Assembly (NCBI GenBank): GCA_963701965.1
Contig: OY969695.1
Span: 4,160,001-4,224,000 of the forward strand
Length of the DNA: 64,000 nt
Source: an uncultured Gemmatimonadales bacterium
GTDB taxonomy: Bacteria; Gemmatimonadota; Gemmatimonadetes; Gemmatimonadales; Gemmatimonadaceae
Reading direction: 5' to 3'
Positions 5,149-9,212 of this stretch are shown piece by piece (positions within the stretch are counted from its first letter, which is position 1; each line of letters opens with the position of its first letter). The position numbers and the translations under genes are program-made. The notes beneath the pieces are model-generated. The model saw only the letters and a program-made list of their open reading frames with translations, was not told the origin of the DNA and searched no databases.

Positions 5149-6414
5149 TTATCGCTCGGGCGCGGGCGGGGGCGTCGGGTGGGAGAACTGGTGTGACGCG
5201 GTCGGATGGCTGTCAGTGCCGTCCGTGCGCACGATCGGAGCAATGGAGCCCGGGCCGACCGGGCGAGCCACCGCGGAGTCGAGGACCGTGGGTTTCTCGA
5301 TGACCGCGGAGGGTGTGGGTGCCACTGCCGGCGTCACGGAATCGGCCGCCGCTGACGTCGGAACGATGTCGGTCCCGGTGTCCGGCGGCGGCGTCGTGTC
5401 GATCGGTGTCGTGTCCACCGGGGCGACCGCGCGCGCCGGCGCCGGCACGCGAGCCTCGCGCACCTCCGGCTTGCCCCAATGCCGGGCGGCCACGACGATC
5501 GCCATCACCAGGACCGCCGCGACGCCCAATGCGATCGCCAGCGCGCGGCGCGGATACCGCCGCCATAGTGGCTTCTGGTCGGCCGCTCGCCCGCGCCCCG
5601 GCGCGCTCGCGGCGCGCGGCTCTCCCATGGGCACCGACGCGGGTACCGCGGCGCCCTCGGGGATGTACAAGTCCAAGCCGTGCGCCGGCGTCAGCATCAT
5701 CGGTGGCGCAATGCGCACCTGGCCGACAACCGGCACCTCGCTGACGGGCGCCGGCGGTGCGGGCGCCGCTGGCAAAGGCGCCGCTGGTGTCGGCCCACGC
5801 ATAGACGGTGGCTCGTGCCACTGTGGCGCACGTGGTCTCTCGGTGAGGGCCGGCGCCGCGGGCGCCGCCACATCGGGTTTATCCTCCAGCGCGGCAAACG
5901 CGCGCGAGAGCACGTCGTCAATGTCGCCGACGGCCGGCTCGGCCGGCGGTTCCGGCGCCGGCTGCACCGCTCCCGCCTCGACAGCGTCGCGGATGTTCTC
6001 CCACAGCGCGGTGTCCGCGCTGCCAAGCGGCGCGGGCTCCTCGGCAACCGGCGCATCGCCGGGCGGCGTATCGCCAGCCAGCGATGCGATAATCGGCGCC
6101 CGCGCGCGCTCGAGCTCTTCGTCGGACGGATCCCGCCCGTAGAGAAACGCTTCGAGCACAGCCGGAAACGCCACGCACTGCCCGGTGTCATAGAGCCGGG
6201 CATGCCAATCGTCGTGGACGCGCTCGTCGGCGCCGTCCCTCAGCGCCGCGTAATAATCGAGATATTCGCCGAGCGCATCGCGCCCGAACGAATACAGCAC
6301 ACTCCAGCCGTTCGCGCGCAGTTGCCCACTGCGCCGGTCGGCCAGATCAGCCTCCGGTATGCGCAGCGACCACGGCGCGAACTCGCGCTTGAACGCTTCC
6401 GCCGCCGTCTCCAT
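5149..6414 (-). CDS. bitopic hypothetical protein (globular N-terminal domain, Pro-rich linker, TM, Pro/Thr-rich tail)
   Basis: 421-aa ORF; TM ALAIALGVAAVLVMAIVVAA preceded by a basic patch. Confidence 0.7.
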   Translation of the reverse strand: METAAEAFKREFAPWSLRIPEADLADRRSGQLRANGWSVLYSFGRDALGEYLDYYAALRDGADERVHDDWHARLYDTGQCVAFPAVLEAFLYGRDPSDEELERARAPIIASLAGDTPPGDAPVAEEPAPLGSADTALWENIRDAVEAGAVQPAPEPPAEPAVGDIDDVLSRAFAALEDKPDVAAPAAPALTERPRAPQWHEPPSMRGPTPAAPLPAAPAPPAPVSEVPVVGQVRIAPPMMLTPAHGLDLYIPEGAAVPASVPMGEPRAASAPGRGRAADQKPLWRRYPRRALAIALGVAAVLVMAIVVAARHWGKPEVREARVPAPARAVAPVDTTPIDTTPPPDTGTDIVPTSAAADSVTPAVAPTPSAVIEKPTVLDSAVARPVGPGSIAPIVRTDGTDSHPTASHQFSHPTPPPAPER

Positions 6415-6482: not shown

Positions 6483-6807
6483 GACCCGGTAGCTCAGTTG
6501 GTAGAGCAACGGACTTGAACGCCAATGAGAGCACCGCGTCAGAAATGGCGCGCGTGAATCCCGTCAAAGTCGGGGAACGCTTGCACCATGCCAACCCCGA
6601 GCCAAGCCGCCCGTCTCCGCGAGCGGAAGGTGTAGAGACTGGACGGCGGGTGCCTGACCACCGCGAGCCTCTTGTGGCTCCGGTGAAGGCAAAGGGACAG
6701 TCCAGACCACGAACCGCGCCCCGGGGTGATCCCTGGCGGGCGCGGGCGGCGAAAGCCGAAGTGGTACGTTAATCCGTAGGTCGCGGGTTCGAAGCCCGCC
6801 CGGGTCA
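6483..6807 (+). tRNA. trnK: tRNA-Lys(UUU), split by an intron (exons 6483-6516 and 6769-6807; CCA not encoded)
   Basis: Exons of 34+39 nt join to a 73-nt cloverleaf: acceptor GACCCGG/CCGGGTC with A73, D arm GCTC-AGTTGGTA-GAGC, anticodon arm ACGGA-CTTTTAA-TCCGT, T arm GCGGG-TTCGAAG-CCCGC. Confidence 0.92.
6517..6768 (+). ncRNA. group I self-splicing intron, IC3/Azoarcus-like, 252 nt, no internal ORF
   Basis: 5' exon ends in U and intron ends in omega-G; P/Q/R/S-like blocks AAAGTCGGGGAA, AACCCCGAGCCAAG, GGTGTAGAGACTGGACGG and AAGGGACAGTCC; P1, P2, P3, P4, P6, P7, P8, P9.0 and P9 all base-pair. Confidence 0.93.
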
Positions 6808-6824: not shown

Positions 6825-7238
6825 TCAGGGTTTCGAGGCAGTCGGTATCGAATCGGGATCCATTTCCCGGAACCCGATGATGTTCTCCAACAACCCCCAC
6901 TCCAGCAGTCCCGTCTCCGGCCCGCCCACGCGGAACGGTTGGGAGATCAGGGGGCGCTCCAGCTGCCGCTCCGCCACAAACCGGTACTCCTGGCTCAGCG
7001 TCACCGGTGTGAAGCGGAACGTCCGCGTCTCCGTTCCCGGCACGGTGCCCAGCATCTGACGGGTGCCGGACGTTTGGACGAGGAAGACGGTCACCTCGGT
7101 CGGTACCGAGAGGTTGTTCGTGATCTCGACCGCGACCGGATGGGGCTTATCGTCTTCGTTAGGTTTCTTTTTGAGCGATGCGCAGCCCAGCGCCGTCAGC
7201 ACGGTCGCTGCGATCGCCGCCGTCAGAAGTGTCCGCAT
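6825..7238 (-). CDS. putative lipoprotein
   Basis: Signal MRTLLTAAIAATVLTALGC ending in a lipobox; start moved to ATG 7238. Confidence 0.7.
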   Translation of the reverse strand: MRTLLTAAIAATVLTALGCASLKKKPNEDDKPHPVAVEITNNLSVPTEVTVFLVQTSGTRQMLGTVPGTETRTFRFTPVTLSQEYRFVAERQLERPLISQPFRVGGPETGLLEWGLLENIIGFREMDPDSIPTASKP

Positions 7239-7291
7239 GGCACGAATCTCATGCACGTTCGCGGCCCGCGCCAGCACCAACTCCCTGGAAT

Positions 7292-8119
7292 ATGGAACAG
7301 ATCGTCTATCCGCCTGAAACATTGGAAGGGTGGTACACGCTACACCAAGTGTTTCGCATCAATGCTGCCGCGCTGCGCGCCCTTCCGCCCAGCGAACGCG
7401 CGTCGGTCAAAGCGAGCGCCGCGCGCGCGTTGGAAGACGTCGCATCGCCGTTGACCGAGGAGGGATGGAGCGCGATTGTCGAGGTCGCTGGGTCCGTCGC
7501 CGATCTGATGCTCGTGCACTTCCGCCCCACGCTCGCCGCTTTGCGCGCCGTGCAACGGCGTCTCGCCTGTGAGCCGCTCTTCGATCGCTTGATCCCGGTC
7601 TACTCGTTCCTGAGTGTCACCGAGGCTGGACTCTATCACCTGAGCGCCGCTGTGGCCGCGGAGCGCGCGCAAGCCGGTGGCGCCGTTGGCGACGCCGAGT
7701 ATCGCGCGGCCATCGATGCCCGGGCCGCCACGGAACGCGCCAGCGCCCACGTGCAACGGCGCCTCTATCCGCCGCTGCCCGCCGAGATGCACTTCGTCTG
7801 CTTCTATCCGATGTCCAAGCGGCGCGCCGAGGGACAGAACTGGTACGCGCTCAGTCTCGACGAGCGCAGTCGGCTGATGCAGGCCCACGGCGTCACGGGG
7901 CGCCGCTACGCGGGTCGCGTGCAACAAGTCATCACGGGCGCGATTGGCCTCGACGCGTGGGAATGGGGCGTCACGTTGTTCGCGCGCGATCCGCTCGACG
8001 TGAAGCGCCTGGTGACCGACATGCGCTTCGACGAAGTGAGTGCGCAGTACGCCGAGTTTGGCCCGTTTTTCGTCGGCGAACGCCTGAGCCCGGCCGCCTG
8101 GATCTCGACACTCTTCTAA
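7292..8119 (+). CDS. chdC: coproheme decarboxylase (ChdC/HemQ, chlorite dismutase superfamily)
   Basis: PETLEGWYTLH, FYPMSKRR, NWY, HG..GRRY, GLDAWEWGVTLF and MRFDEVSAQYAEFGPFFVG match HemQ-type proteins. Confidence 0.85.
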   Translation: MEQIVYPPETLEGWYTLHQVFRINAAALRALPPSERASVKASAARALEDVASPLTEEGWSAIVEVAGSVADLMLVHFRPTLAALRAVQRRLACEPLFDRLIPVYSFLSVTEAGLYHLSAAVAAERAQAGGAVGDAEYRAAIDARAATERASAHVQRRLYPPLPAEMHFVCFYPMSKRRAEGQNWYALSLDERSRLMQAHGVTGRRYAGRVQQVITGAIGLDAWEWGVTLFARDPLDVKRLVTDMRFDEVSAQYAEFGPFFVGERLSPAAWISTLF

Positions 8120-8225
8120 ACCCGGGCCGCAACAGCGCTCCGCCTATCAATCCATAGGCGCGTTCTATTTGCCTGGAGGGCATCCCCGAAACAATGATAG
8201 AAGTATCAACAACCGAAAGAGTACC

Positions 8226-9212
8226 GTGGCGACAACGACGAATGGAAACGGCGCGCACTCGGGCACGCTCCTGATTCGACAGTTCCAATATCTCGTTGCG
8301 CTGGCCCGCGAACGGCACTTCGCGCGTGCCGCCGCGGCGTGCCACGTGACGCAGCCGACCTTGTCGAGCGGCATCAAACAACTCGAGGAAAGTCTCGGCG
8401 TGCTGGTCGTCGAGCGCGGCCAGCGCTTCCGCGGCCTCACGCCCGAAGGGGAGCGCGTGCTGGCGTGGGCGCGCCGCATTACCGCCGACGTCCAATCGCT
8501 GCGCCAGGACGTCGACGCCACGCGCGGCGAGCTGTCGGGCCGCCTGCGCGTCGGCGTCGTCCCCTCGGCGCTCTCCATGATCGCGTTGCTCACGGCGCCG
8601 TTCGCCGAGCGATATCCGGGAACGAGCATCGCCGTCACGTCGCTGACATCGCGCGCCATCGAGCGCGCGCTGGAGGAGTTCGAGATCGACGCCGGCGTCA
8701 CGTATCTCGACGAGGAGCCGTTCGGCCGCGTCGACATCGTGCCCCTGTACCGCGAGCGCTACGTGCTGGTCACGCCGGCGCGCTCACCGATCGGGCGTCA
8801 GTCGCGGGAGGCGGCAACATGGTGCGAGGCGGCGACGTTGCCGCTGTGCCTGCTCACGTCCGACATGCGGCATCGGCGCATCATCAATGGGCTCTTTCGC
8901 GAAGCGGGCGCCACGCCCGTGCCGCGCGTCGAGGCCGATTCCATGGAAGCCGTCTGCGCGCACGTCCGCCAAGGCGTGCTGTCGGCGGTGCTGCCGCAAG
9001 CCGCGCTCGCGGTGCTTGGCGACTTGCCGATCCTGCGCGTGCTCCCGCTGGAAGAACCCGTCGCCTCGCATGCCGTCGGTCTCGTCACGCTGGATCGTGA
9101 CCCGCCCACCCCGATCGCCGCCGCATTTCGCGCCATCGCCCGATCGGTCGACGTGGAGACGGCGCTGGAGCACCATGACGACCTGGCGCCACGCCTCCAT
9201 CGGACGGGCTAA
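8226..9212 (+). CDS. LysR-family transcriptional regulator
   Basis: HFARAAAACHVTQPTLSSGIKQLEE helix-turn-helix; substrate-binding domain follows. Confidence 0.93.
   Translation: MATTTNGNGAHSGTLLIRQFQYLVALARERHFARAAAACHVTQPTLSSGIKQLEESLGVLVVERGQRFRGLTPEGERVLAWARRITADVQSLRQDVDATRGELSGRLRVGVVPSALSMIALLTAPFAERYPGTSIAVTSLTSRAIERALEEFEIDAGVTYLDEEPFGRVDIVPLYRERYVLVTPARSPIGRQSREAATWCEAATLPLCLLTSDMRHRRIINGLFREAGATPVPRVEADSMEAVCAHVRQGVLSAVLPQAALAVLGDLPILRVLPLEEPVASHAVGLVTLDRDPPTPIAAAFRAIARSVDVETALEHHDDLAPRLHRTG

Follow-up and report, generated by a model that had tools for sequence, protein, structure and literature searches.

A tRNA-Lys(UUU) gene of an uncultured Gemmatimonadales bacterium cut after U34 by a predicted self-splicing group I intron

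Can a bacterium rely for its AAA codons on a tRNA gene that is interrupted inside the anticodon by a ribozyme? This question is raised by a locus of an uncultured Gemmatimonadales bacterium (GenBank assembly GCA_963701965.1, contig OY969695.1), which we analyzed within a stretch of 64,000 nucleotides, hereafter called the window. We are highly confident that a group I intron of 252 bases, predicted to be self-splicing, cuts the tRNA-Lys(UUU) gene found there after U34, and that the split gene is likely the only native reader of AAA.

The host tRNA and its exon boundaries

The gene is composed of exons of 34 and 39 nt separated by an insert of 252 nt (Table 1). When the exons were joined by script, they formed a regular cloverleaf that ARAGORN calls tRNA-Lys(ttt), and the coordinates of the two halves, the anticodon UUU, and the insert length are exactly those of the original prediction. 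ARAGORN in its default mode reports no tRNA anywhere in the window. In its intron mode, whose use had been suggested at the outset, it returns Lys(ttt) i(35,252) when run on this locus; run on the whole genome, this mode gives at least 130 calls, mostly spurious. Seven junctions that keep a 7-nt anticodon loop were tested, and ARAGORN named the products Asn (three), Ser (two), Lys (one), and Thr (one). Only the junction at 6516/6769 combines a U at position −1 with an omega G, and the junctions yielding Asn(GUU), Thr(UGU), and Ser(UGA) were rejected because they lack this combination.

Among 21 loci of relatives (L011–L031) are 17 whole intron-less genes, one 5′ half, and three sequences outside the pattern. 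All 17 intron-less orthologues carry the loop CUUUUAA and an acceptor stem that is the same as, or nearly identical to, that of the split gene. Because these orthologues match both halves and the loop, we assign the host as tRNA-Lys(UUU) despite the labels given by the intron mode of ARAGORN, which names six of seven intron-bearing relatives Asn(gtt) and the remaining one Leu. Those labels would fit a host tRNA-Asn(GUU) that is cut one base earlier (33/34) and uses G6768 as its wobble base, an arrangement that likewise leaves a 7-nt loop and is called Asn. However, the intron would then have to end in C (6767), and P1 would place U33 opposite A6530 rather than opposite a G. Moreover, the tRNA body with its discriminator A fits the intron-less Lys(UUU) orthologues, and the genome has two other Asn(GUU) genes. 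We therefore judge an Asn host to be very improbable and retain tRNA-Lys(UUU), cut between positions 34 and 35.

Table 1. Coordinates of the split tRNA gene and its intron within the window
Feature	Position	Strand	Remarks
5′ exon of tRNA-Lys(UUU)	6483..6516	+	tRNA positions 1-34; last base U34 is the −1 uridine; identical or nearly identical to intron-less orthologues
Group I intron	6517..6768	+	252 nt; RF00028 28.8 bits, covariation; no homing endonuclease
Predicted P10 guide	6526..6528	+	Would pair with 3′ exon bases 1-3; read from the sequence
Internal guide sequence GAG	6529..6531	+	P1 with exon 6514-6516; U34 (U6516) opposite G6529; adjoins P2
P2	6532..6556	+	10 bp, one bulge, GAAA loop 6542-6545; two-sided changes at 10/10 pairs
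P3, 5′ strand	6560..6565	+	Pairs with 6645-6650; covariation
P4 and short P5	6570..6600	+	P4 6570-6575/6595-6600, 99.5% paired; P5 about 6579-6591, from sequence; no P5abc
P6 and P6a	6601..6631	+	98.9% and 100% paired
P7, 5′ strand	6635..6641	+	Pairs with 6698-6703; bulged A6636; G6637 of presumed guanosine-binding pair
P3, 3′ strand	6645..6650	+	Pairs with 6560-6565; covariation
P8 with internal loop	6651..6691	+	Read from the sequence; loop like the IC3 tetraloop receptor
P7, 3′ strand	6698..6703	+	Pairs with 6635-6641; covariation
P9 domain	6706..6765	+	P9.0 6706-6710/6761-6765; variable hairpin 6715-6744; GAAA-capped hairpin 6747-6758
Omega-G	6768..6768	+	Last base of the intron; 2 nt past P9.0; invariant in 31 rows
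3′ exon of tRNA-Lys(UUU)	6769..6807	+	tRNA positions 35-73, with discriminator A; no CCA in the gene

Anatomy of the group I fold

An Infernal search with the Rfam model RF00028 finds a match at 6557-6651 (28.8 bits, E 3.3e-5), which is the only match in the genome and lies below the gathering score of 50. Matches are likewise present in 16 of 20 related loci (25.9-54.1 bits), 15 of the 16 being below the gathering score, and the other four loci give none at E 0.01. RF00028 appears to score low on bacterial tRNA introns, since a survey of these elements was conducted at 20 bits (Williams 2020, bioRxiv 10.1101/2020.01.27.920355). The predicted fold of the precursor has a z score of −3.95, and none of 100 shuffled sequences is as stable.

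Covariation was assessed in an alignment of 31 Lys(UUU) introns of compact core, picked by hand, on which a structure of 46 pairs drawn on the window's sequence was imposed; longer introns from Planctomycetota, Rhodothermales, and Solirubrobacterales were left aside. In this alignment, 96.3% of cells are paired, and two-sided changes occur at 21 pairs. This result is reached by none of 500 shuffles, and slid controls give 30-41%, values that are not probabilities, given the relatedness of the rows and a structure derived from the window's own sequence. Within the group I core, P3, P4, P6, and P7 are 97.8-100% paired across the 31 rows and form the P3/P7 pseudoknot, with every core pair intact in the window's copy. 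Covariation in this core, the U-1/G pair, and the omega-G bear out the proposal that the insert folds as a group I ribozyme; its standing as a genuine group I intron in tRNA-Lys(UUU) is well supported.

P1 is paired in all 31 rows, with U-G at the splice site in 30 of them, and the predicted P10 keeps two or three pairs in relatives with different letters. P3 is 97.8% paired with two-sided changes at four of six pairs, P7 is 100% paired with such changes at two of six, and P9.0 and P9 are 90.3% and 100% paired, respectively. G6637-C6702, which we take from established group I structure to be the guanosine-binding pair, is present in 31/31 rows, next to an invariant A6636. Omega-G belonged to the search pattern that supplied the GTDB rows, and all five congeners show it without its use in the query.

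The helices P2, P4, P7, and P9.0 stand as first described, given their pairing counts, as does the placement of an invariant omega-G at 6768 next to P9.0. Two registers had to be corrected by the alignment and the pairing counts, which leaves the splice sites unchanged. The internal guide sequence had been placed at 6527-6529, but this GAG is a second register found in the window's genome only, and the one that adjoins P2 and aligns with the guides of 30 relatives is three-letter GAG at 6529-6531. The predicted U.G splice-site pair is retained as U6516-G6529, though in the shifted register. For P3, the helix itself was correctly recognized, but its proposed 3′ partner at 6642-6646 is only 76.1% paired and shows two-sided changes at 0/5 pairs, and sliding this partner by +3 raises pairing to 97.4%. 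Guides were read from the alignment in place of an automatic caller, which resolved 49 of 93 introns, put 10 at the wrong hairpin, and favoured 10 nt in its tie-break.

The window's copy has a G at +1, an extra AG before the guide, and the second GAG register, features in which the five congeners differ. Because the G at +1 faces A6528, this copy has no P1 extension pair. These deviations near the guide (6517-6528) could be real or could reflect an assembly error.

The architecture resembles that of IC3 introns, as originally proposed for an Azoarcus-like core at position 34/35 of tRNA-Lys(UUU). P5 spans approximately 13 nt and lacks P5abc. L2 is GAAA, and P8 reads GCC...GGC where the IC3 receptor signature has CCC...GGG, with an asymmetric loop that resembles that of the receptor. 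IC3 introns are described as lacking P5(a-d) (PMC11835236), and the IC3 receptor as the commonest L2-P8 receptor, with the signature CCC...GGG (PMC11571812, PMC2275092). The Azoarcus intron, whose pre-tRNA self-splices (PMC13168695), shares with the window's intron a compact core, an anticodon-loop host, and a P1 formed by 5′ exon and guide. It differs in host tRNA and site and is 47 nt shorter, and the likeness is drawn from published descriptions.

Group I introns of tRNA-Leu(UAA) occupy the same position 34/35, with exon CUU, guide GAG, and wobble U34 as the −1 base, but reside in another host tRNA; one such intron, from genome G032, is 61% identical over 207 columns and groups apart. Classical tRNA-Leu(UAA) 34/35 introns occur in three Gemmatimonadota-like genomes of the same order (L033 in G032, L088 in G177, and L226 in G457). 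The intron of plastid trnK(UUU) is a group II intron with matK. It shares the host isoacceptor with the window's intron, but differs in intron class and chemistry and is unrelated. As for mobility, the four overlapping ORFs give no Pfam hit at all, none of seven neighbouring genes matches an endonuclease family, and the intron is only 252 nt long, so that it lacks the encoded endonuclease of a mobile (homing) intron.

Occurrence, probable earlier description, and possible movement among tRNA sites

Among 60 relatives searched, the whole split gene is present in all five congeners (81-85% identity) and in genomes G024 and G030, and in most others the two tRNA halves are directly adjacent. The gene neighbourhood is syntenic in the five congeners and includes an uncharacterized protein upstream; downstream lie genes for a small uncharacterized protein, a member of the HemQ/chlorite-dismutase family, and a LysR protein. 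In the window, the HemQ/ChdC coproheme decarboxylase-like gene lies at 7178-8119 (+) (PF06778; PDB 1t0t, E 5e-60), followed by the LysR regulator at 8169-9212. The proteins at 5149-6414 (−), 6825-7322 (−), and 625-2196 (−) have no Pfam hit, and the one at 5149-6414 (−), which runs divergently from the tRNA, shows conservation across the genus.

Near-identical introns in the Gemmatimonadaceae records L100 and L190 and the Gemmatimonadales record L196 agree with the Gemmatimonadota-like host inferred from the DNA at first reading. Intron matches were found in 22 of 400 genomes of the family and in 5 of 400 in a sample of the phylum. A GTDB pattern scan for the 3′ junction, answering the call to look for the same insertion elsewhere, gave at least 120 loci, named loci of which may overlap genomes of the family and phylum samples, so that these sets are not summed. 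A tRNA-Lys(UUU) split at 34/35 could be rebuilt in 92 of the 120 matches listed (73 of the 80 whose flanks were complete and 19 of the 40 whose flanks were short), with intron lengths of 204-378. Carriers among the matches listed belong to Planctomycetota, Actinomycetota, Alphaproteobacteria, Rhodothermales/Bacteroidota, Chloroflexota, and Gemmatimonadota, or at least six phyla, plus one Terriglobia record. This record (L158) has a tRNA-Lys and intron of planctomycete type and may be misbinned. In a tree with flagged long branches, the introns at the Lys(UUU) 34/35 site fall into two or more distant lineages.

Several side observations concern this gene in other genomes. A lone tRNA-Lys 5′ half lies 120-190 nt before a complete intron-bearing gene in G024 (L008:1349-1785) and in L101, L124, and L151. 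In such cases, an integrating element may have cut the host gene and supplied an intron-bearing replacement, by which the intron could spread without needing an endonuclease. On the contig of G024, no integrase was found near the duplicated halves. Duplicated 5′ halves of an intron-less tRNA-Lys(UUU) occur in L015 (G057) and L037 (G035), where the gene is an integration site. Also, a c-di-GMP-I-GGC riboswitch match lies approximately 400 nt downstream of an intron-bearing tRNA-Lys in L086:2181-2278 (59.1 bits) and L136:1-47.

The original prediction held that Lys(UUU) might be an undescribed host site, a claim that is not supported, in view of the GTDB matches and of carriers that pass the filters of an earlier survey. 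Group I introns have reportedly also been described in Asn/Asp tRNAs of Patescibacteria. Williams (2020) raised the number of bacterial tRNA group I classes from four to 21, using 80,413 genomes of January 2017 with at most 300 scaffolds and an N50 of at least 10 kb, and requiring both an RF00028 match at 20 bits and a split call by ARAGORN. The introns of that survey and that of the window have in common a bacterial tRNA host, an anticodon-loop site, and U-1/G-omega boundaries, and the latter is within its limits (<400 nt, no ORF, RF00028 >20 bits). It also agrees with the definition of class Lys.3Ug (a tRNA-Lys cut behind loop base three, with U-1 and G-omega), and we infer that the Lys(UUU) 34/35 introns are this class.

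Two cultured genomes illustrate this point. Microbacterium azadirachtae DSM 23848 (86 contigs, N50 97,758) and Microbacterium sp. SA39 (39 contigs, N50 232,853) carry Lys(UUU) introns that score 34.6 and 31.4 bits, respectively, with today's RF00028 model and receive ARAGORN split calls. Both genomes were published in May 2015 (PMC4432332). Because both meet the filters of Williams (2020), that pipeline should name their class Lys.3Ug, and it is very probable that the Lys(UUU) 34/35 group I intron has already been catalogued. Against this, a literature search that did not reach most subscription papers returned nothing in which a group I intron of a bacterial tRNA-Lys is named, and "Lys" is absent from the accessible portions of PMC3984707, PMC11835236, PMC11915505, and PMC13168695. 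The window's intron is very likely a further example of a widespread element, and a specialist would not be surprised by it, because its chemistry, its fold, and, very likely, its host site have been described before.

Related introns interrupt other tRNA sites in the family and order. With ambiguous junctions assigned by tRNA body, 30 loci comprise Lys(UUU) 34/35 in 16 genomes (including the window's), Gln(CUG) 35/36 in seven, Leu(UAA) 34/35 in three, Lys(UUU) 35/36 in two, Asn(GUU) 35/36 in one, and one without an assigned site. The Gln(CUG) introns are in L010 (G008), L091 (G311), L217, L221, L222, L223, and L234, all from family genomes. The Lys(UUU) 35/36 introns of L224 (G486) and L227 (G659) have the guide GGA and not GAG. 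The Asn(GUU) intron of G030 (L032/L219) scores 43.5 bits with RF00028, in a genome that also has a Lys intron. The guide tracks the target site, as GAG, GGA, or GCA.

In genus g52, the Lys and Gln introns form one clade (97/95) when the first 25 intron bases are removed, and within each of four genomes of this genus they are 83-89% alike. The g52 introns are nearer to each other than either kind is to introns that share its host tRNA in other genera (66% and 75%). The AU test rejects a single clade for the 16 Lys 34/35 introns (p-AU 0.0046), a group named after the tree had been viewed, and does not reject one for the seven Gln introns (p 0.148). We tentatively suggest, at somewhat less than even confidence, that one endonuclease-free lineage moved among Lys 34/35, Lys 35/36, Gln 35/36, and Asn 35/36 by rewriting its guide. 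Gene conversion between introns within one genome could produce the same picture. If site switching is true, nature would offer in these introns a series on which retargeting at the RNA level, through reverse splicing, could be tested, with the window's gene as a ribozyme-gated sole reader of AAA.

Proposed splicing and probable dependence on the split gene

Two-step, guanosine-initiated splicing is suggested by the anatomy, by the boundary rules of Williams (2020), and by the self-splicing of the Azoarcus pre-tRNA. If the intron acts as the tRNA introns of Azoarcus and cyanobacteria do, exon CUU would pair with guide GAG (6529-6531), so that U34 sits in a U-G wobble. P7 would bind a free guanosine, which would cut after U34, omega-G 6768 would then replace this guanosine, and P10 would align the 3′ exon as U34 is joined to U35. 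Addition of CCA and modification of the wobble U would come after splicing, the latter because P1 holds U34 beforehand; mnmA is present in the genome at C1:1021241. No endonuclease is encoded by the intron, and its inheritance within the genus is vertical.

Eight of 24 RNA runs were examined (best share 0.15), and they yielded contigs of other strains only. Contigs from related strains span the intron in X1, X2, X3, X22, and X23, and those of X1 and X22 contain the 6516/6769 join. Because intron-less organisms or library DNA explain either observation, these contigs are evidence of neither expression nor splicing. A promoter scan of the locus found no sigma-70-like site, and the terminator-like hits, which are upstream, allow no interpretation.

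The search for an intron-less tRNA-Lys(UUU) elsewhere in the assembly, which the original prediction had advised, did find one. ARAGORN reports a Lys(ttt) gene at C1:297106, in apparently foreign DNA. The first 330 kb of the contig is shifted in tetranucleotide use, the second component being +2.3 to +5.7 in all 33 intervals, whereas the later intervals (41 printed) are within approximately 2 of zero. A YbgF protein beside this tRNA has Caldimonas, Rhizobacter, and Pseudomonadota as its named relatives, and a 1.9-kb stretch around the tRNA matches the five congeners only in short pieces (≤75 bases), mostly tRNA. The segment C1:1-330000 includes this Burkholderiales-like ybgF, with frameshifts, and extra tRNAs (Lys TTT, Lys CTT, Ser TGA, Thr CGT, and Leu CAA). 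Judged from its sequence, it is probably a chimeric join or contamination, and it may instead be a large recent transfer. No intron-less Lys(UUU) pattern was found in the five congeners (67-95% complete), in G024 and G030, or in five other named carriers, including the complete Singulisphaera acidiphila.

Because the intron-less copy looks foreign and the congeners are without one, the split gene is probably the only native reader of AAA. In a crude ORF set outside the foreign segment, 5,987 AAA codons are spread over 2,237 of the 2,789 long ORFs. In vivo splicing would thus probably be essential in this lineage. The warning that default tRNA scanning misses the gene is borne out, but the expectation that the genome would be reported as lacking Lys(UUU) is not, given the call at C1:297106. 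Such a gap does hold for the five congeners and five other intron-bearing genomes, in which there is no intron-less copy.

This second gene also figures in a reading in which the intron is real but not self-sufficient, either needing a host protein or being a dead copy for which the 297-kb gene substitutes. Some group I introns do require proteins (PMC3984707), and in the window's copy, which misses the P1 extension pair, the GC-rich peripheral stems exceed those of the congeners in length. However, every core pair is intact, and the substitute gene would reside in the compositionally distinct 330 kb, beside the foreign YbgF and in a region without counterpart in the five congeners. With no second gene to fall back on in those congeners, in vivo splicing must take place in the lineage, and we consider this reading improbable. 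Still less probable, to the point of being hardly credible, is that the insert is what remains of a phage or island that entered the anticodon loop by integration. Relatives do use the tRNA as an integration site, as the duplicated 5′ halves in G035, G057, and G024 indicate. However, the window's genome has no duplicated half, none of seven neighbours scanned is an integrase, and no match exists in 50,697 phage records. The complete group I fold, with covariation in P3 and P7, refutes such an origin.

Many genomes wrongly seem to lack tRNA-Lys(UUU) because default finders miss split genes and intron modes often name them Asn; for tRNAscan-SE 2.0 it is stated that such introns go undetected (PMC8450103). 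The main value of the present finding therefore lies in annotation, together with a test system. Cultured carriers exist, among them M. azadirachtae DSM 23848 and S. acidiphila DSM 18658, in which dependence on the ribozyme is testable. In carriers without an intron-less copy, the decoding of AAA would depend on a ribozyme.
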